From an uncultured Alphaproteobacteria bacterium (GTDB lineage: Bacteria; Pseudomonadota; Alphaproteobacteria; RF32; CAG-239): a DNA stretch of 64,000 nt. The stretch covers positions 47,224 to 111,223 of the forward strand of contig CAKQKH010000002.1 of the NCBI GenBank assembly GCA_934248075.1, written 5' to 3'. Position numbers and translations under genes: made by a program. Each line of letters begins with the position of its first letter. Position 1 is the stretch's first letter. Positions 22,852-42,945 of this stretch are shown here, piece after piece. The notes below the pieces were generated by a model that made no database searches, was not told the DNA's origin, and was given only the letters and a program-made list of their open reading frames with translations.

Positions 22852-23138
22852 GAAGAATGCACACTCTAACTTCTCCCCTTGATTTCAAGGGGAAGACAGA
22901 GAGGGGTTTAAAAATAGCTGTCACCGCTCCGAGGGGCGAACATTCTCGCCCGAGGTCAAGCGGTCTTCCGTGCTGATAATACAAACTAACAGCATGGAAG
23001 ATGCCTGGACTTTGCGGAAGAATACACACTCTAACTTCTCCCCTTGATTTCAAGGGAAGACAGAGAGGGGTTAAAAATAGCTGTCACCGCTCCGAGGGGC
23101 GAGCATTCTCGCCCGAGGTCAAGCGGTCTTCCGTGCTG
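22852..23138. repeat. Two direct copies of an about-120-bp palindromic element (family A), each followed by a short hairpin element (family B)
   Basis: Copy 1 at 22852-22975 and copy 2 at 23018-23138 are near-identical. Each carries internal inverted repeats (ccccttgatttcaagggg and gggcgaacattctcgccc). The B hairpin gatgcctggactttgcggaagaat recurs at 22997 and 23162. Confidence 0.85.
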
Positions 23139-23225
23139 TCAATCGATATTATCAGTTCGGTAGATGCCTGGACTTTGCGGAAGAATGCTTCCGCAAAGAG
23201 GCATGACAGAGTCTTTTTTATTGTC

Positions 23226-23309
23226 ACTCTGAGTGAACCGAAGCAATCCATATTGTTGCTTGATAAAAATGGATTGCTTCTCACGGCTGACCGCCGTTCG
23301 CGCAATGAC
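23226..23309. repeat. Hairpin repeat element (family C)
   Basis: A 12-bp stem gaagcaatccat / atggattgcttc around attgttgcttgataaaa. Further copies lie at 42694-42776 and 45397-45490. Confidence 0.85.
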
Positions 23310-23338
23310 ATTGGAGAGAGGGGAGGAAAGAAGAATAA

Positions 23339-24088
23339 TTAGAAGGACAGGGTTTTGGCCAATTGTGAGGTATAAAAATTTCGCAGACGGTGAACATAGC
23401 CAGTATAGTTAACAAGTTTATATGCAAGCCAATCTTCGACACTCCCATGAAAAACCGCTACAACAAAGTTATAATAGTCTTGCATTTTTTGCAAATCATC
23501 AACTTTATATTTGCCATTAGGACGTTCAAATTGACCCGTCATCATATATTTGATTTTTTCAACAATATCCTGCGCCCGGGCAATTACTTTTTGGGCATCT
23601 ATCTGGCTCATATCTTTATGCTGTGGATAAATCAGCCACTTATCATACAAAACTGAATATTGCGCCAAATCTGGCACTTTTAATACAATTTTGATTTCCA
23701 CCTGACGCCCAGCAATACGATACTTACGCTGATGATCCAAAAAAGCATTACGAACCTTACCTATAAACTGAAATATTTGCTTATTACTTTTAAAAACGCC
23801 GTTATTTTCAACTATAGAAACAACTATTTCTAGATCCAAATCTGAAAACTCCTGATATTCATAAGTAGTGGAAGAACCAAACAAAACAATATCATCAACC
23901 TGCAACCACGGAAAATCCTTGAGACAACCGTCAATTACGACCTGCGCACGCATCAAAAGTTTTTGCCGAATCTCCGGCAGCATTTGGTGGTTAGCATCAA
24001 ACACACGGCTGTCAAGTTCCTGATGCGAGGTCATCAGCCACTTGATATTTTCTTCCATGGTCTGCTGGCGAGGATTGACGTTTAGCAT
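23339..24088 (-). CDS. Pol-beta-superfamily nucleotidyltransferase (KNTase/ANT/Lnu-like architecture)
   Basis: Canonical motif LFGSSTTYEYQEFSDLDLEIVV (hG[GS]...DxDxE) followed by a helical C-terminal region. Its ATG overlaps the upstream stop as ATGCTAA. Confidence 0.7.
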   Translation of the reverse strand: MLNVNPRQQTMEENIKWLMTSHQELDSRVFDANHQMLPEIRQKLLMRAQVVIDGCLKDFPWLQVDDIVLFGSSTTYEYQEFSDLDLEIVVSIVENNGVFKSNKQIFQFIGKVRNAFLDHQRKYRIAGRQVEIKIVLKVPDLAQYSVLYDKWLIYPQHKDMSQIDAQKVIARAQDIVEKIKYMMTGQFERPNGKYKVDDLQKMQDYYNFVVAVFHGSVEDWLAYKLVNYTGYVHRLRNFYTSQLAKTLSF

Positions 24089-24849
24089 TGCTCTAACTCA
24101 TTAATATTATAGTTATAAGATTCGATCAGGAATTTTTTGAAATATCTTTCACCGCCAAGCTCACAAAAAGTACGATAAAGCAAATAATCAAAATTATATT
24201 CATGCTCGTCGCTGTCCAACCAATATTTGCGGGCTTCCGAACGGAGATATTTAAGATAAGCTTCCAGCTGGTGGCAGCCTTCTATGGTAAATTCACCGTT
24301 AGGATGACGGGAATGAGATTCAACATTTTCACGGATAATCTGCTGATAACGCGGAAAAACCATGCAAAACTCCGGCATAGTGAAAGCAAACTGACGTTTG
24401 ACAGGCGGATTCAGCCAACGCTGGTGAATAATTGAAAAACAAGGAATTCCTTGAGGAACGTCAGCCAAAAAATGGCAATGAACCGGACGATTGATAAAAG
24501 TGTAAGGAATTTCGGTCGCTTCCAGAATATCATTAATCTCGGAAAGGTTGGCCTGCAACGGCTCAGGTAAATCATTATAGATCAGACCAACATATACAGG
24601 ACTAAAACGATTATAAACATAACCAGCCAGATCACCATACAACACCACGTCTGAGGCCTTTTGCCAATTTACCAAAGGGCGGTTTTCACCCCACCAAAAG
24701 TTGGCAATATTTATTATCCCAGATTTGAAAGTATCATACAATGTATCCGGTGATGAAAACACCACCGGACACAAGGTGTCATTAATGCGAACATGCTCGC
24801 CGATATCTATTGATTCAAACTTTATTGGCTGCATTAGCTTTAGTAACAC
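24082..24849 (-). CDS. Nucleotidyltransferase-like paralogue with degenerate catalytic motif
   Basis: Segment SDVVLYGDLAGYVYNRFSPVYVGLIY aligns to the NTase motif of the downstream gene, but GS has become GD and DLDLE has become PVYVG. Alternative ATG start at 24834. Confidence 0.55.
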   Translation of the reverse strand: MLLKLMQPIKFESIDIGEHVRINDTLCPVVFSSPDTLYDTFKSGIINIANFWWGENRPLVNWQKASDVVLYGDLAGYVYNRFSPVYVGLIYNDLPEPLQANLSEINDILEATEIPYTFINRPVHCHFLADVPQGIPCFSIIHQRWLNPPVKRQFAFTMPEFCMVFPRYQQIIRENVESHSRHPNGEFTIEGCHQLEAYLKYLRSEARKYWLDSDEHEYNFDYLLYRTFCELGGERYFKKFLIESYNYNINELEQC

Positions 24850-26084
24850 TTACCATTATAACACGTTTGGTTGCCTGTGCATGTAACGCTCTCACAAGGG
24901 TCGCCACCGGTTGAACCACCTGATGAGCTACCTCCTGATGAACCACCTGATGAACTACCGCTTATCTTAGTGGGCGTTATTGAAAATGATGCTGACATGC
25001 AACTATCGTCAGCTGTACAGGTTTTAACTAGGTCATCAGCATAGGCCTGACAAACGGTGGATAATTCACTAGATGTATAATTTGTAACATCCGTTGGACC
25101 ACAGGGTGCTACATAGTCATCGTAGCAGGTATTGTCAGGAAACCAATAGCCATCTGATTGTGAATAGACAGTACTGGTATACTGGGAACGACATTGATCA
25201 CGAATGGTTTTTGACCGGCAGTCTTTATAACAGGTTACACCACTAACAGTGATTTTTGCGCAATTATAATATCCCGTGTCTGAACTCAGGTATCCGGCAT
25301 CGGCGCAAACATCTTTGGCTTTGCCGGCATAAATAAAGATATTGGCCGAATAGTTCTGAGGAGTAACCGTGGTTGATTTGCCATAGATAGAATTTGATTT
25401 ACTAGCATCGAAATTAATATACACAGAATTGGCGCCTTTTGTGTGTCCTTTACCATAATTATCGCCTTTGGGTGATATACTGAAAGCCCCAGAAATATCT
25501 CCACTGTAACTATACTCCGGTCCTTGCAAACCTACTTTACCAGTAATATTGGGCAAGCCGGCGGCTTGCGCGCTACGAAACGCTGATTGAATTGTAGTCA
25601 CACTTGTTGTCTCTATTGCAGCACCTTTTAAGAAGTATCCCGAATATGAAGGAACGGTGTTTTTTCCTAATAACTTATATAAATCGGAATAAAGAGTTGT
25701 ATCAAATGATTGACCATTACACAATAACCAGCCATCATGATTTTTCGCTTTCCATGAATACTTCAGATCACCAACAGCATGCTGAGGGGCAAGACACATG
25801 CCAAATGTCGGCTCAAAGGGACACGGAATAAATGTATCTGAGCACCTAGTCTTTTGTGTGCTGTAACCCATAGACATACATTTCAAAACACCATCCTGGC
25901 AGTTATATTTGGTATCATCAAAGGGGCAGCGGGTGAATATTTTTCCCTCACATTGAGACGCGGTTTTGGTGTATCCCAAAGTGGCACAGTCAGGGGCAGC
26001 AGTGCATTCCTGTTCCTGAGCTTGGCTGGGCAGGGCGTATATCAATGCCGGAACGGCGGCAGAGGCTAATAACATATTTTTCAT
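24840..26084 (-). CDS. Secreted cysteine-rich protein with a phage tail-collar (MdpB-like) domain
   Basis: Signal peptide MKNMLLASAAVPALIYALPSQA. Central region GWLLCNGQSFDTTLYSDLYKLLG...VTPQNYSANIFIYAG matches the tail-collar pattern W.LCdG...Y..Lf..iG. C-terminal GSSSGGSSGG linker followed by a Cys knot. SD aaggggaaaag. Confidence 0.65.
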   Translation of the reverse strand: MKNMLLASAAVPALIYALPSQAQEQECTAAPDCATLGYTKTASQCEGKIFTRCPFDDTKYNCQDGVLKCMSMGYSTQKTRCSDTFIPCPFEPTFGMCLAPQHAVGDLKYSWKAKNHDGWLLCNGQSFDTTLYSDLYKLLGKNTVPSYSGYFLKGAAIETTSVTTIQSAFRSAQAAGLPNITGKVGLQGPEYSYSGDISGAFSISPKGDNYGKGHTKGANSVYINFDASKSNSIYGKSTTVTPQNYSANIFIYAGKAKDVCADAGYLSSDTGYYNCAKITVSGVTCYKDCRSKTIRDQCRSQYTSTVYSQSDGYWFPDNTCYDDYVAPCGPTDVTNYTSSELSTVCQAYADDLVKTCTADDSCMSASFSITPTKISGSSSGGSSGGSSSGGSTGGDPCESVTCTGNQTCYNGKCY

Positions 26085-26119
26085 TTCTTTTCCCCTTTAT
26101 AAATTGGTTGGCAAATCCC

Positions 26120-26956
26120 CTACTTGACAGACCAAGTACAGAGTTGTTTGTTTTGGCAGATAAATTTGGTTTTATGATAATAACCGATATTACATTTGAC
26201 AAAGCGGTAATGAACCGTGGTATCACCACAGCCTTTGACGCAGGTTTCATATTGAGAGTTGGCCGGAGCGGAGTTTAAATCGTACTCCGAGCAATCTTTA
26301 GGCGTACAGGTTTTACCCTGTTCGCACTTGGAAGGGCAGTCGGCATAATATTTCTCACAACCATACTCAGTTGCGTTATCAGTCAGGGCATCACACGCCT
26401 CAACGCACTCGTTGCATTTTGCCGCGCAATTTGGACAAGGCGTTTTACAGCCATATGTGCAGGTTAAGTCATTGCAATTTTGGCTCAGGCAGGCGTCGGT
26501 AATCGGGGTCTCGCACTTGGCGGGGCAGTCATCCCAATATTTTTGACAACCATAATCAACAGATAGATTATCAGTGCGATTGCGACAATTATCAGTATAG
26601 GGAATCTCACATTTGGTTGAGCAGTCATCCCAGGTCTTTTGACAACCATAATCGGAATCGTGTTTGACGTCTGTACGCAAAGCGCAGGGTTCGACACAAC
26701 CACTGACACACCAGCCGACACCGGAGAAAAAATGTTTTTTAGAGCAGACCTGACCAGAGGCTGCCGAGGCGGAAAACCATCCGGAAGGACACTTGATGTC
26801 AGAATCAGAATCACGGCCGCCGGCGTTGCGATCCATGTTTTTGCCCAAGAAATCAGGCAACCAATAAATTTTGGCTGACACAGTGCCGACGACAAGCATA
26901 CAGCCCAACACCGTTAATATGCAGATATACTTCCGCATCGCGATGACTCCCATCAA
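26120..26956 (-). CDS. Secreted cysteine-rich repeat protein
   Basis: Signal peptide MRKYICILTVLGCMLVVGTVSA. The probable start is the ATG at 26937 or 26953, not the TTG at 26956. Three repeats of [DE]YGC[QE]K[TY][WY]xDC[SP]xKCE. More than 40 Cys residues. Confidence 0.6.
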   Translation of the reverse strand: MMGVIAMRKYICILTVLGCMLVVGTVSAKIYWLPDFLGKNMDRNAGGRDSDSDIKCPSGWFSASAASGQVCSKKHFFSGVGWCVSGCVEPCALRTDVKHDSDYGCQKTWDDCSTKCEIPYTDNCRNRTDNLSVDYGCQKYWDDCPAKCETPITDACLSQNCNDLTCTYGCKTPCPNCAAKCNECVEACDALTDNATEYGCEKYYADCPSKCEQGKTCTPKDCSEYDLNSAPANSQYETCVKGCGDTTVHYRFVKCNIGYYHKTKFICQNKQLCTWSVK

Positions 26957-26965
26957 AACTTGTAA

Positions 26966-27001
26966 CCTATTTTAGAATATCAGGCTACGCGCATGTTGTC
27001 A
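26966..27001 (-). promoter_or_regulatory. Candidate sigma-70 promoter of the Cys-rich/NTase operon
   Basis: On the minus strand: TTGACA, a 17-nt spacer, then TATTCT, about 10-30 nt upstream of the first gene. Confidence 0.35.
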
Positions 27002-27041
27002 ACGCGGAAATGATTACATTTATGTTACATAAAAACTAGCG

Positions 27042-28334
27042 CTAGTTTTGTTTGTCGGCAAAGAGCTTTTTGGCCTTGTCAACCAAGCCGTCATCTTGCG
27101 CCAAAGTCGGGAAAACATGAGTCGGCGAGGCCGGAACCGGATCGGTCTTGGTGATTTCCAGATATCCGGTTTGCGGACGAAACACAATATTTTTGAAAGC
27201 ATACAGCACAAACAATCCGCTGAAAAAAGAAAAAGACAACACAAAACTGATGGCGCCCCATTGCTGCATGGCAAAAGAAACAATAATCGGCCCGCCCATC
27301 ATGCCGATGCTTTGCAACAAAATCAGTTGGCCGCTGGCCTCTACCCGCTCGTCATCGGTGATTTTGTCATTGAGATGCGAGATGCAAATCGGATAAAGCA
27401 CAAAAGTGCCGGCGCCAAGCAAAACCGCGCAACCAGACATCAGCCATACGCCGCTGTCAATAAAAAACTGCATCCAAGGCGCGACCACAAACAAAGCGCC
27501 GCACAGCCACATCATGACAAAACGGCGGTCAAACTTGTCAGAAAGGCGGCCAACCGGTATCTGCGCCACCATGCCGCCCATAATGCAGAAAAACATAAAC
27601 AAGGCCGTGATGTTGATGTCTAACCCCATCTGATCGGCATAAATCGGACCAAGCGTGTAAACATTGCTGACCAAGATGCCGCTGATGATACAGCCGACAA
27701 CGCTCATCGGTGCAAGTTTGTATGCGCGGCGCAAAGACATATGCTTATGCTTGCGGATTGGCGGGGTGGGCTTGCCGGTGAGACTAACCGGCACCAAAGA
27801 CCAGGAATACAGCACCGAAATGATTATAAACACCATAAAACCGCCGGGGTCAGGAATATTGAGCATTAGTTGGCCGCCCGCCATGCCCAAATAAGTCATG
27901 ACCATGTAAACCGACATAATCACACCGCGATTTTGATTGTTGGAACGAGTGTTAAGCCAGCTCTCCAAACACATTAGCCCAGCGGCGATGCAATAGCCCT
28001 CGGCAAAACGCAACAACGCCCAAAACCATGGCGCCGAACTTATGGTGTGCAACAGCACCATGGACGAGAGAATCGAAATATAACCGGCAAAAGCGCGGAC
28101 ATGCCCGACTTTGTTTATAATCCGCGAGGAAGTGAGCGACGAAACAATATAAGCAAAGTAATAAAACGCCATGACAATGCCGGTATAAAAAGTCGGAGTG
28201 TGCTGAGCATTGAGCCGCACCGCCAGAATCGATGTATTTAGACCACTGGCGACATACATTACCAAAGTGCCGATGAAAAACGCAGCTAATGGCGACAGAA
28301 GCTTTTCCGCGGCTTTTAGTCTTTTGATAAACAT
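27042..28334 (-). CDS. MFS transporter
   Basis: 12 predicted TM helices. 430 aa. Confidence 0.85.
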   Translation of the reverse strand: MFIKRLKAAEKLLSPLAAFFIGTLVMYVASGLNTSILAVRLNAQHTPTFYTGIVMAFYYFAYIVSSLTSSRIINKVGHVRAFAGYISILSSMVLLHTISSAPWFWALLRFAEGYCIAAGLMCLESWLNTRSNNQNRGVIMSVYMVMTYLGMAGGQLMLNIPDPGGFMVFIIISVLYSWSLVPVSLTGKPTPPIRKHKHMSLRRAYKLAPMSVVGCIISGILVSNVYTLGPIYADQMGLDINITALFMFFCIMGGMVAQIPVGRLSDKFDRRFVMMWLCGALFVVAPWMQFFIDSGVWLMSGCAVLLGAGTFVLYPICISHLNDKITDDERVEASGQLILLQSIGMMGGPIIVSFAMQQWGAISFVLSFSFFSGLFVLYAFKNIVFRPQTGYLEITKTDPVPASPTHVFPTLAQDDGLVDKAKKLFADKQN

Positions 28335-28379
28335 GAGTATTGCGCTCCCATTCCGGCTCAGATTAAGGAAAAAACAACA

Positions 28380-30107
28380 TCAGGCAGCTTTGAGCATGGC
28401 CTCAGGCGCCTCTATACCTAAAAGATACAGATTAAGTTTTAAGATATCCCTAACCATTTTGGCCAATCTGAGCCGCGATGCCGCCTTGGCCTGATCAGCC
28501 TCGCTCAGAATCGGCGAAGTATTATAAAAACCGGAGAAAACCTGCGCCAGATTATAGACATAATCAGAAATTATGCTCGGCTCTTTTTCGGTCTCGGCAC
28601 GAGCAACCATAGTGCCAAACTGGGCAATTTTGAGCGCCAAATTACGCTCCTCAGGGTTGGTGATGATGATATTGCCCTCTGCAAGGCCATTATCATGCGC
28701 CTTACGGAGAATCGAGTTAATGCGAGCAATGGCATATTGAATATAAGGTCCGGTCTTGCCCTCAAACTTGGCAAAGTCATCAAGCTCAAACACATAGCCG
28801 GAAGCGATGTTGTTTTTGAGATCCTGAAATTTGATAGCGCCGATAGCAATCTGCGACACCATTTTTTCGATATCTTCATGGGTGTATCCCTCAGCAGCAG
28901 ACGGAATCGACTCTCTGACCTTGTCTTTGGACAGATTAATCAGGTCCTCCAGGTTCATCACGCCGCCGTCGCGAGTCTTAAACGGCTTGCCGTCAGCACC
29001 GTTGACCGTGCCAAAACCAATATGCTTAAGCGTGACATTTGGGGCGATGCCAAGTTTGTCGGCGACCTCAAACACCTGCTCAAAATGCAGCGACTGCCGC
29101 TTGTCCACCACATAAATAATCTCTTGCGCCTTGAGGTCATCAACACGCATTTTGATAGTGGCAATATCTGTGAGCTGATAGCCAAAACCGCCATCGGACT
29201 TGACCAAAATCACCGGAGGCTTGGAATCATCAGCCAAGCGCATAATCAAAGCGCCGTCATCAAGCACGGCCAGACCTTTGTCTTTGGCCAACTCAACAAT
29301 TTTGCCGCAGGTTTCATGGGCGTCGCTCTCGCCCAGCCAAAGGTCAAAATGCGCGTCTAAAACATCATAATTTTTCTTGATAGCCTCAACCGAAACCTTG
29401 CGCAGATGCTGCCAGGCCTTGCGGTATTCGGGGTTGCCGCCTTGCAGTTCGGCCGTAATCAGACGAGCTTTTTCTTTGGCGACGTCATCTTCTTTGCAGC
29501 GAATATTGGCTTGTTTATAAAAAGCGGAAATCTGGTTGATATCATAGCTCTCGGTCTTAGACAAATCACCGTCTTGGTTGATAATTTCAGACAGAATCAT
29601 GCCCATGGGAGTACCCCAATCACCAAGGTGAACGTCTGAAACAACCTCATTGCCGACAAAATTTTCTATCCGGCGGACAGACTCGCCAATCACGGCCGAA
29701 CGCAGGTGTCCGACATGGAGAGCCTTGGCGACATTTGGCCCGCCAAAATCCATGACAATTTTGCGCGGAGCAACGGTTCTGGCCGCGCCAAAGCGCTCGT
29801 CTGACGCGGTCTTATCCATAAATTTGGCGATAAAATCATCTGCCAGAGAAATATTAAGAAAACCAGGGCCATCTACCGATATTTTGGCCAAATCCGTGTC
29901 TTTTTGCAACTCAGCGGCAATATTGCCGGCTATTTCACGCGGATTTTTGCGCTCGCTCTTGGCCAGAGCCAAAGCGCCGTTGCACTGAAAATCACTCAAA
30001 TCAGGGCGATCAGATACTTTTACAAAAGCAAATTTAGGATCCAAGTTTAATGTCGCAAAAACTGCAGCCAATTTTTGGTTGAGGGTGTTCTCTAAAGATA
30101 ATGACAT
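28380..30107 (-). CDS. argS: Arginyl-tRNA synthetase
   Basis: HIGH-type motif ALHVGHLRS and a DALR anticodon-binding C-terminus. Confidence 0.95.
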   Translation of the reverse strand: MSLSLENTLNQKLAAVFATLNLDPKFAFVKVSDRPDLSDFQCNGALALAKSERKNPREIAGNIAAELQKDTDLAKISVDGPGFLNISLADDFIAKFMDKTASDERFGAARTVAPRKIVMDFGGPNVAKALHVGHLRSAVIGESVRRIENFVGNEVVSDVHLGDWGTPMGMILSEIINQDGDLSKTESYDINQISAFYKQANIRCKEDDVAKEKARLITAELQGGNPEYRKAWQHLRKVSVEAIKKNYDVLDAHFDLWLGESDAHETCGKIVELAKDKGLAVLDDGALIMRLADDSKPPVILVKSDGGFGYQLTDIATIKMRVDDLKAQEIIYVVDKRQSLHFEQVFEVADKLGIAPNVTLKHIGFGTVNGADGKPFKTRDGGVMNLEDLINLSKDKVRESIPSAAEGYTHEDIEKMVSQIAIGAIKFQDLKNNIASGYVFELDDFAKFEGKTGPYIQYAIARINSILRKAHDNGLAEGNIIITNPEERNLALKIAQFGTMVARAETEKEPSIISDYVYNLAQVFSGFYNTSPILSEADQAKAASRLRLAKMVRDILKLNLYLLGIEAPEAMLKAA

Positions 30108-30126
30108 AGTTCTTCCTTAAAATATA

Positions 30127-30444
30127 TTATTTTTCACACTTAAAATAAAAATGATTGGGAACCAAAAGACGACAGGTGAAATATGTCTGTCTTACCGGAG
30201 TGGCATGAGTGCCGGTCTTTTCGCTGATACAAACGTCATCGGCCAGCTTTTTGACATCGGCATATGGCGTGTACAGACTATTGTAGCATACCGCAGGCTC
30301 CGTTGGCGTGGAGGCTCCGACATATAACGTTGCCGGCGTCTTGGCTCCGGCCTCTCGTCGTCGGTCTATAAACGGACGAAACTGCGAACAAGCGCATAAT
30401 AAAGATATAAGTACCGCAATATTTATTAATTTGAGGCTGGACAA
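30127..30444 (-). CDS. Small lipoprotein, hypothetical
   Basis: Lipobox LLCAC after a signal peptide. Confidence 0.45.
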   Translation of the reverse strand: MSSLKLINIAVLISLLCACSQFRPFIDRRREAGAKTPATLYVGASTPTEPAVCYNSLYTPYADVKKLADDVCISEKTGTHATPVRQTYFTCRLLVPNHFYFKCEK

Positions 30445-30508
30445 TTAAAAAAACTCCGCTAATTTATTCTGTAACAATTGTTCAACACTATAAACTAAGA
30501 AGCACAAA

Positions 30509-31102
30509 ATGCAAGAAAACAAATATATCGGCGATGAAAAAATGACTAAAATGCTGGAACACTACCAATGTTCCACCCCTTTGGAGGTAGTGAAAATGCG
30601 GTTTGCCGGCGCAATCTGCAGCCCTAATATGGAGCTGCGGCCAACCGATGTCATATCTTCTTTGTGGCCGGCCGGACAGGCACCCAGACTGCAAACCAAA
30701 GACGAGGCCGACTTGTTCTTCAAGTTCTTTATGGGACTGTGGGACGCGATGTTTGACCAGATTCAACACAATAAAATTAAATTAGACAAACTGCCGGCCA
30801 AAGACTTGGAATATTATTGCCAGCGCCGTTTTGCCGAAATTGAACAAGGCTATATTGAGGGATTCTGGGGCGGCAAATCCGATATGAAAATTCCGGCGTT
30901 TTTGGCAGAGGTGATCGACTCTTTGTCAGATTTGGCCGGAGTGTATGGAAGTCTGCTGAAAAAAATATCGGCCGGCAGCGATAAATCAGAAGTGATCAAT
31001 GCCTTGAGTTCAGCCGACTCCATGGCGGAAAAAGCGATTGCGTTTATTATCGAAAACTCGGTATTGCCGCGGATAGAAAGCCTGCGACGCACCGTCAACT
31101 AA
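30509..31102 (+). CDS. UPF0149/YecA-YgfB-like family protein
   Basis: Size (197 aa) and helical pattern resemble UPF0149. Weak evidence. Confidence 0.4.
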   Translation: MQENKYIGDEKMTKMLEHYQCSTPLEVVKMRFAGAICSPNMELRPTDVISSLWPAGQAPRLQTKDEADLFFKFFMGLWDAMFDQIQHNKIKLDKLPAKDLEYYCQRRFAEIEQGYIEGFWGGKSDMKIPAFLAEVIDSLSDLAGVYGSLLKKISAGSDKSEVINALSSADSMAEKAIAFIIENSVLPRIESLRRTVN

Positions 31103-42607: not shown

Positions 42608-42945
42608 CAAGAATATACTCGCCACTCACTGTGTTCGAGGCTCGGAATTATGCCTGATTTGCACCCCTGCTCCGTCATTGCGAGGTGAACATTAGTGAAC
42701 CGAAGCAATCCATATTGTTTCTTGATAAAAATGGATTGCTTCTCGCGGCTAATCGCCGTTCGCGCAATGACCCGCGACGACGGCTCCGCATTGTCATTCC
42801 GGCGGACGCCGGAATCCAGTGAAAAAACATGTCATGCCTCGATTGCGGAACGCAATCGTCAGGGCATCTTCCGTACTGACATTTAAAAAGCTCGGAAGAC
42901 CGCTTGACCTCGGGCGAGAATACTCGCCTCTCGGAGCGGTGACAG
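42608..42945. repeat. Mosaic cluster of palindromic repeat elements (families D, C, IPAxAGMT-type and A inverted)
   Basis: D at 42608-42666 matches 45506-45555. C at 42694-42776. cattccggcggacgccggaatccag is an IPAFAGMT-type element. 42890-42945 is the reverse complement of the 3' half of family A. Confidence 0.8.

Follow-up and report, generated by a model that had tools for sequence, protein, structure and literature searches.

Why should a bacterium keep, directly in front of a gene for a nucleotidyltransferase (NTase) with an intact catalytic triad, a paralogue from which that triad has gone? The question is posed by two adjacent genes, here called A and B, on the minus strand of contig CAKQKH010000002.1 (assembly GCA_934248075.1) of an uncultured Alphaproteobacteria bacterium of the CAG-239 lineage; the window analysed is a stretch of 64,000 nucleotides of this contig (positions 47,224 to 111,223), and the coordinates below are those of the window. 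An earlier note, made from the letters alone, had aligned the two genes on a single NTase core, and both peptides that it quoted are indeed present, in two adjacent minus-strand open reading frames (ORFs). Gene B (23339..24088, minus strand) starts with ATG and encodes 249 amino acids. The longest ORF of gene A (24082..24849, minus strand) starts with GTG and would give 255 amino acids; since all nine homologue clusters of A (245-252 residues) align from the methionine encoded at 24834, the real product is probably the 250-residue protein that starts at this ATG (24082..24834, minus strand) and not at the GTG at 24849.

A and B are full-length paralogues whose homology goes beyond chance. BLASTP aligns them over 161 residues at 20% identity (E = 6e-8), and a hhalign comparison of the A family with the B family, a check that had been proposed together with the original alignment, upholds the relationship with a probability of 96.9% (E = 1.8e-10, 183 columns). 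In a joint MAFFT alignment the two families are collinear from end to end. B reaches the Pfam family NTP_transf_2 (PF01909) at 22.0 bits, just above the cut-off of 21, and aligns along its whole length with phrog_36119 (residues 9-247 against profile positions 9-245 of 247, E = 5.4e-10), whereas A has no match in Pfam, PHROGs, NCBIfam or PADLOC. Sequence-profile searches of the PDB match only minimal NTases (2rff, MNT and 1ylq, at E = 0.0075 or worse), and the sequence matches of B and of the family members are confined to the NTase core.

The AlphaFold2 (AF2) monomer model of A is confident, with a predicted local distance difference test (pLDDT) score of 89.6 and a predicted template-modelling score of 0.83; that of B has a pLDDT of 80.9. 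Both models show the same succession of 12 secondary-structure elements, helices and strands, which form a Pol-beta-type NTase core followed by a helical C-terminal domain. When the models were compared with the PDB using Foldseek, all of the 31 best matches of A were Pol-beta-fold NTases, although they are weak (best E 0.01, template-modelling (TM) score ~0.2); the best match of B, to CdnE, reaches E = 1.7e-4, and TM scores are about 0.2-0.27 across both models. The matches of the two models, almost all to Pol-beta NTases, include CdnE, CdnC, CdnD, MNT, LinB, ANT(4'), AadA, PAPD1, TUTases and NF90/NF45. Both proteins can thus be placed in the Pol-beta core fold, which is defined by a mixed beta-sheet between helices and an initial helix-turn-strand, by their models, the Foldseek matches and the hhalign link, joined for B by PF01909, and the claim that A retains the NTase fold holds, given its AF2 model, the 12 elements that it shares with B and its Pol-beta matches. 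As judged from these models the fold assignment appears sound, mainly through B and the family, with no solved subfamily close by.

The two proteins differ at the catalytic positions. B carries FGS at the hG[GS] motif (F70-G71-S72; 23873..23881, minus strand), DLD at the DxD motif (D83-L84-D85; 23834..23842, minus strand) and a third carboxylate, E131 (23696-23698, minus strand). At the same positions A, in the numbering of the 250-residue protein, has YGD (Y66-G67-D68; 24631..24639, minus strand), PVY in place of the metal-binding DxD (P79-V80-Y81; 24592..24600, minus strand) and a histidine at the third carboxylate position, H119, which is followed by C120 (24475..24480, minus strand). The earlier note had both motifs replaced in A. 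This is right for the DxD, where PVY faces the DLD of B, and half right for hG[GS], in which the Ser has become Asp and the Gly is retained; the third carboxylate, on which the note was silent, is also lost, E131 of B corresponding to H119 of A. In the window lineage A therefore lacks the Ser of hG[GS], both carboxylates of the DxD and the third carboxylate, from which we infer that it is unable to carry out canonical two-metal nucleotidyl transfer. No alternative in-frame start restores the motifs, because they are internal to the ORF.

These replacements are not peculiar to the window copy. In the A clade, which comprises 14 sequences (13 homologue clusters and the window copy), the first motif is YGD, FGD or CGD in all 14, Asp68 being invariant, and His119 and Cys120 are likewise invariant (14/14). 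The other members, here numbered with a P (P0002-P0009 and P0014-P0017), read [YFC]GD, then an ExS-like motif, then H; PVY at the DxD site belongs to the window lineage, and E-x-S is found in most other members of the clade. The motif positions of A are unchanged in 15 sequence variants of at least 90% identity from different samples.

The lost catalytic residues and the lack of any curated family match for A would also be expected if it were a duplicate decaying into a pseudogene, its similarity to B a mere remnant. The selection data speak strongly against this. Between A and its counterpart in the orthologous operon of a related locus, L019, there are 43 synonymous and 16 non-synonymous differences, a ratio of non-synonymous to synonymous substitution rates (dN/dS) of 0.080. 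In the same comparison the two genes upstream of A, which encode a secreted Cys-rich repeat protein and a secreted protein with a Collar domain, give 0.096 and 0.243, respectively, and B gives 0.137; purifying selection is stronger on A than on the catalytically intact B. Across A orthologues of 40-94% identity 45 columns are invariant, the ORF is intact and of constant length in every locus, and all 15 population variants are full length. With a dN/dS of 0.080, intact ORFs and conserved columns, A is not decaying; the confident AF2 model points the same way, and we reject the pseudogene reading, which these data leave with very little probability. Homology to active enzymes, loss of the catalytic residues and purifying selection together support the view that A is a conserved pseudoenzyme.

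To place the pair in its family, homologues were collected by an exhaustive HMMER search with a joint A and B profile, which gave 3066 cluster representatives at E <= 1e-3 and 1128 at E <= 1e-10; the consensus, taken from the best 150 of the 3066 representatives, is hG[SG] / DxD / [DE]. No Pfam family covers this NTase domain of ~250 residues at full length, and literature searches found no publication on the family. No new relatives came from a word-indexed homologue search with the merged A and B alignment, nor any relatives from a scan of viral contigs with B, and the 74 loci returned by a scan of Joint Genome Institute (JGI) metagenomes for DSYNYNIN were all chance matches, none of them to the family.

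Related loci share a gene order: the Cys-rich gene, the Collar gene, A, B and, optionally, further paralogues C and D. A and B are adjacent, with A before B, in all distinct loci examined. Among the related loci that have a Collar gene, A is always the first paralogue and always degenerate, with at least one intact paralogue downstream, and every operon keeps at least one paralogue with an intact triad. Two operons with three or four tandem paralogues (L002, 8738-11030; L011, 4396-5917) have two that are degenerate. In these B has itself lost the triad (YGV/EIE/D in L002 and CGV/NIS/E in L011), C or D being intact there, and the A of such multi-paralogue operons reads YGD/EVS/H or CGD/EVS/H. 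As both A and B are degenerate in L002 and L011, the catalytic residues have been lost more than once within the paralogue array.

In two distant lineages both genes of the pair are intact (L015, with P0020, and L016, with P0019). In a neighbour-joining tree the intact first genes of these loci fall with the dead A clade and their second genes with B, and this split by type indicates that the A-type/B-type duplication and pairing are older than the catalytic loss in A. The first genes of L015 and L016 also share the DSYNYNINVLEQ-type C-terminal tail of A, and the second gene of L015 ends in ..LSF, as B does. We also looked for fusions among proteins of ~500 residues with two family domains. 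Two of them, P0021 and P0035, are fusions of an N-terminal A-type and a C-terminal B-type domain, in operon order and with short linkers, each having one degenerate half: P0035 reads FGD/DID/K and then TGS/DID/D, and P0021 reads TGS/DLD/H and then SGD/SID/T. The remaining two-domain proteins of this size include B-B doublets. In multidomain relatives Pfam finds NTase cores, one Amidoligase_2 domain (P0145) and one sub-threshold PARP match.

The two genes of the window are also linked at the level of their ends. They overlap by the seven nucleotides ATGCTAA (24082..24088, minus strand), the ATG of B lying inside the last codons of A (CAA TGC TAA), and start/stop overlaps of this kind are typical of translational coupling. 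The same overlap of 7 nucleotides is found in L001, L007, L008, L009, L010, L011, L012 and L019, it measures 1 nucleotide in L002, and nearly all loci have a stop/start overlap, of 7, 11 or 1 nucleotides. The invariant C-terminal tail of A (..NELEQC; 24082-24110, minus strand) shares nucleotides with the start codon of B, and a purine-rich stretch before this start, GAGTTAGAGCA, also encodes part of the tail. Because the same nucleotides carry both, part of the conservation of the tail peptide may reflect translation-initiation signals for B.

The pairing is ancient and obligatory, the genes are translationally coupled, the fusions repeat the gene order and every operon retains at least one intact paralogue; all this makes a non-catalytic partner of B the best reading of A, and one to which we would give roughly even chances. 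A would be the A-type member of an ancient A-type/B-type pair in a family of ~250-residue Pol-beta-fold NTases, and a putative non-catalytic partner of B in a hetero-oligomer, in which it could serve as a scaffold or as a substrate-binding or regulatory subunit; the two proteins would be made in coupled, near-equimolar amounts from their overlapping genes. It is plausible, to judge from the genes and their arrangement, that A-type and B-type proteins act together physically, and a heteromer with a single active site, one option of the earlier note, is plausible on the same grounds.

Several observations weigh against a partnership of this kind. The structural matches to solved NTases are weak, as noted above for A (best E 0.01, TM about 0.2). 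The homologues in large phages are single copy, so that the NTase fold of the family needs no paralogous partner. The number of paralogues varies from 2 to 4, which is a poor fit to a fixed 1:1 heterodimer. Fused doublets and tandem paralogue arrays are also typical of polyimmunity loci (PMC3482391), and because these look alike the fusions and arrays do not prove a heteromer. Finally, the former active site of A has acquired newly invariant polar residues (D68, H119 and C120), which could mean a new activity rather than none.

Such a neofunctionalised enzyme would have its pocket rebuilt around Asp68, His119 and Cys120, with Glu79 in most orthologues, and might, for example, catalyse a hydrolytic or removal reaction opposing that of B or bind a metal or nucleotide without transfer; GlnE, whose two NTase domains carry out opposing reactions, provides a model for the former. 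The three residues are invariant in 14 of the 14 dead-clade sequences, D68 and H119 occupy the Ser and third-carboxylate positions, on neighbouring elements of the predicted core, and A is the most constrained of the four genes of the operon. "GD" also recurs in other degenerate members of the family (the N-terminal half of P0035, the C-terminal half of P0021, P0044, P0093 and P0144). However, in the window lineage Glu79 and Ser81 have been replaced by Pro and Tyr without loss of constraint, which argues that this part of the pocket is dispensable, and no known enzyme family matches A; we therefore regard a new activity as an unlikely explanation of its conservation.

If A is a non-catalytic partner of B, what the pair acts on may be suggested by the genes with which it is transcribed. 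The first gene upstream of A (24840..26084, minus strand) encodes a secreted, Cys-rich protein of 414 residues with a phage tail Collar domain (Pfam Collar, E = 4.4e-7, together with tail-fibre PHROGs) and a signal peptide read from the sequence. Before it lies the first gene of the operon (26120..26956, minus strand), for a secreted Cys-rich repeat protein of ~260-278 residues, the start codon being uncertain; this protein has a signal peptide, finds no family match in Pfam, PHROGs, NCBIfam or PADLOC, and in every related locus its gene precedes that for Collar. The gaps between these genes and A are short and all are on the same strand. Immediately before the Cys-rich gene a consensus scan finds a promoter-like site (TTGACA-17-TATTCT, with an extended TG; 26974..27002, minus strand), which on this weak evidence is a candidate for the operon promoter.

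A secreted Cys-rich protein or a leucine-rich repeat (LRR) protein with a signal peptide is encoded directly upstream in all 12 of the distinct loci whose sequence reaches that far. Cys-rich proteins with the same repeated "C..[LM]GY...C" modules precede the pair or fusion in L015 (296-1048), L016 (3-1667, also L017) and L018 (1-1125), a Cys-rich C-terminal fragment does so in L096 (3-122), and in L094 (6990-7994, also L095) the preceding gene encodes an LRR_5 protein with a signal peptide. The "C..[LM]GY...C" module has no match to a Pfam family, and no recognisable domain was found in the secreted upstream proteins beyond Collar, LRR_5 and a weak TIL match. Searches of Pfam, PHROGs, NCBIfam and PADLOC detected no known toxin domain in the Collar protein or its relatives.

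Comparison of strains shows that part of the operon is a hypervariable cassette. The window and L008 are 98-99% identical across ArgS, the major facilitator superfamily (MFS) gene, the Cys-rich gene and the first ~185 nucleotides of the Collar gene (30515..25899), whereas past a breakpoint near 25899 protein identity is 51% for Collar, 54% for A and 59% for B. A second pair of strains, L010 and L011, has flanks that are 95-99% identical on both sides (the MFS protein is 100% identical) and is unalignable as DNA over the stretch that begins near nucleotide 527 of Collar and runs to the end of the last NTase gene, with protein identities of 66% for Collar, 51% for A, 37% for B and 48% for C. Thus in two independent strain pairs the cassette, 23339-25899 in the window, consists of the C-terminal part of Collar and all of the NTase paralogues, and flanks of 95-99% DNA identity enclose proteins that are 37-66% identical. 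The left breakpoint lies inside the Collar gene, whose N-terminal part is constant and whose C-terminal part varies between strains. The right boundary, at the end of the last NTase gene, is seen in L010/L011; for the window and L008 it falls outside view, the L008 contig ending just past gene B.

Alleles of one species differ from each other about as much as do alleles of different genera, in which the MFS proteins are 76-81% identical. Since dN/dS between close alleles is low, the cassette looks like a set of old allelic lineages reshuffled by recombination and not like the outcome of rapid positive selection. Its boundaries cut through a secreted protein, and loci for strain-level recognition or antagonism typically look like such cassettes. 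Two Sec-secreted Cys-rich proteins are encoded in the same transcript as the pair, and between strains the pair changes in step with the C-terminal half of Collar; for these reasons the substrate or target of A and B would be linked to the variable Collar protein. The pair may modify that protein or the receptor for it, or may confer protection from it.

The cassette also bears on a different explanation, in which no A-B complex is required. A and B (and C and D elsewhere) would form a specificity-matched array whose members independently recognise, neutralise or modify the variable C-terminus of Collar or its target, and A would be a binder that no longer needs catalysis. This fits the constant N-terminus and variable C-terminus of Collar, the co-variation of all downstream NTase genes, the right boundary, which in L010/L011 coincides exactly with the end of the last NTase gene, a paralogue number of 2 to 4, and the secreted proteins that precede the pair in every locus examined; the fused doublets, moreover, resemble polyimmunity proteins (PMC3482391). 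It accords less well with the catalytic triad, which thousands of family members conserve, single-copy phage genes among them, and which argues for enzymes rather than mere binders. The strict order of A-type first and B-type second and the translational coupling would not be expected of interchangeable immunity genes, dN/dS is low and not diversifying, and no known toxin domain has been found in Collar or its relatives. We therefore consider an array of independent binders possible but clearly less probable than a non-catalytic partner of B.

The resemblance to polymorphic toxin and polyimmunity loci (Zhang et al., 2012; PMC3482391) extends to the secreted protein, whose N-terminus is constant, whose C-terminus varies and which has a tail-fibre-type module, and to the co-varying tandem array of paralogues, variable in copy number and sometimes fused. 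The constant N-terminus, the variable C-terminus and the co-varying genes are seen both in the window and L008 and in L010 and L011. However, no C-terminal toxin domain is recognisable in the secreted protein, in which Collar is the only domain detected; the downstream genes are enzyme-like with a conserved triad, and the alleles are diverged homologues, not unrelated modules exchanged for one another.

The place of the pair among characterised NTases also appears to differ from what had been supposed. The heterodimer of the earlier note was built on the premise of a KNTase-type (kanamycin nucleotidyltransferase) enzyme, with an active site across a dimer interface, and this premise is not supported: PDB profile searches match minimal NTases and not ANT(4'), the best structural matches are the CD-NTases (cGAS/DncV-like nucleotidyltransferases), ahead of ANT and LinB and all of them weak, and the KNTase family is absent from the Pfam and NCBIfam matches of A, B and the family searches. 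ANT(4')/KNTase and LinB do resemble A and B in their length of ~250 residues and in their architecture, an NTase domain followed by a helical C-terminal domain, and are among the Foldseek matches. They differ in the lack of any sequence match and in TM scores of about 0.2, and A and B are without a resistance context. We rejected membership of KNTase/ANT(4'), as there is no sequence-level or profile match to 1kny/ANT(4').

The CD-NTases of CBASS (cyclic-oligonucleotide-based anti-phage signalling systems) give the best Foldseek matches in the PDB (6wt9 for B, E = 1.7e-4; 6e0n for A, E = 0.01), but A and B are about 50-100 residues shorter, the superposition is poor and there is no effector or Cap gene nearby. 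In PADLOC no CD-NTase or CBASS model was matched, B giving weak PDC-S09 matches only and A none. Membership of this group was rejected on the lack of a PADLOC model and on the neighbours, which are secreted Cys-rich proteins, an MFS transporter and ArgS. MntA, the antitoxin of the type VII HEPN-MNT systems, was rejected as well: B scores 22.9 bits against an NCBIfam cut-off of 60. A Pfam search found no HEPN domain in the operon.

Relatives of B with the same triad also occur in large phages, and phrog_36119, which B matches, is a phage protein family of unknown function. B-like genes with an intact triad are present as single copies in T4-like cyanophages, near DNA replication genes, and also in Caulobacter phage Cr30, in Maribacter phages and in Lak and other huge phages, the homologues being found by tblastn in the phage records (OR003938.1, 148066-148779; MK016664.1, 152315-153028; Lak phages; LR7565xx huge phages). 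Among the structures in BFVD, the B model finds matches in proteins of uncultured Caudovirales (E = 1e-14 to 1e-9, TM scores of 0.62-0.68); many of the matched phage proteins are longer (346-884 residues), the match covering only a part of them. In some homologues from environmental phages the NTase is joined to a further domain, for example an amidoligase. Unlike A and B, then, the phage NTases are single copy, near replication genes and often fused to other domains, without a dead partner and without a secreted Cys-rich neighbour.

For a dead unit that is retained beside an active one, a close likeness is with OAS2 and OAS3, vertebrate 2'-5'-oligoadenylate synthetases (OAS) with tandem OAS units of a Pol-beta/CD-NTase-like fold. 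Their N-terminal units are without catalytic carboxylates yet are retained and needed, the dead units bind double-stranded RNA, and the downstream unit is active. The order, dead and then active, is that of A and B and of the P0035 fusion. The OAS units, however, are parts of a single eukaryotic protein, whereas A and B are separate bacterial genes that are rarely fused, and no relationship can be detected between the sequences. Another parallel is the S-adenosylmethionine decarboxylase (AdoMetDC) prozyme of Trypanosoma brucei, which is reported to be a selected dead paralogue that acts by heterodimerising with its active counterpart (PMC5201418). The prozyme is like A in being kept under selection beside an active counterpart; it differs in fold and kingdom, and for A and B both a heterodimer and any activation are putative.

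Beyond the four genes, the operon is flanked by genes for an MFS transporter and ArgS (27042-30107). In the window and L008 the MFS gene precedes the operon in the same orientation; in L002, L007, L010 and L011 the operon has GltX on one side and an MFS gene, convergent with it, on the other. It is thus found on different sides of the MFS-ArgS pair in different genera, and the module has therefore moved relative to its conserved neighbours. On the other side, a 720-bp spacer downstream of B holds two tandem elements of ~164 nucleotides that are 89-96% identical (22846-23190), and a related piece of ~100 nucleotides, a partial copy, occurs at 42674-42771 and also in L008; the element looks like a dispersed intergenic repeat or something akin to a miniature inverted-repeat transposable element. 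Further paralogue remnants downstream of B were sought in 22600-23339 and rejected, tblastn being negative. A plus-strand ORF of 776 codons (20290-22620) converges on gene B; it has no Pfam, NCBIfam or PADLOC family and one PHROG match at E = 0.043, and carries a low-complexity DNSDP(N/D)SD repeat near its C-terminus. The G+C content of the 20-26 kb region is 0.41-0.42, compared with 0.44-0.48 in the surroundings.

Catalytically dead paralogues that act as partners of active enzymes are familiar from eukaryotes; to our knowledge such partners are poorly documented for bacterial NTases. The NTase family found here is large and uncharacterised, with thousands of clusters and with members in Lak-type and T4-like phages, and its natural series, which comprises intact pairs, pairs in which one member is dead, operons in which two paralogues are degenerate, and fusions, makes the evolution of a pseudo-subunit directly testable. 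The NTase pair is found repeatedly with secreted Cys-rich or LRR proteins, and it is this context, a recurrent secreted repeat protein joined to an A-type/B-type pair in a cassette that varies between strains of this clade, that adds most to the finding. Tentatively, and with less assurance than we attach to the partnership of A and B itself, the four-gene operon might be an undescribed strain-specific system, concerned with self/non-self recognition, bacteriocin-like or receptor-modifying, in which a Sec-secreted, Cys-rich, lectin-like tail-collar protein with a variable C-terminus would be matched to co-varying cytoplasmic NTase-fold paralogues, one of them a dedicated non-catalytic specificity or regulatory subunit, and which would recur as a module in other bacterial lineages.

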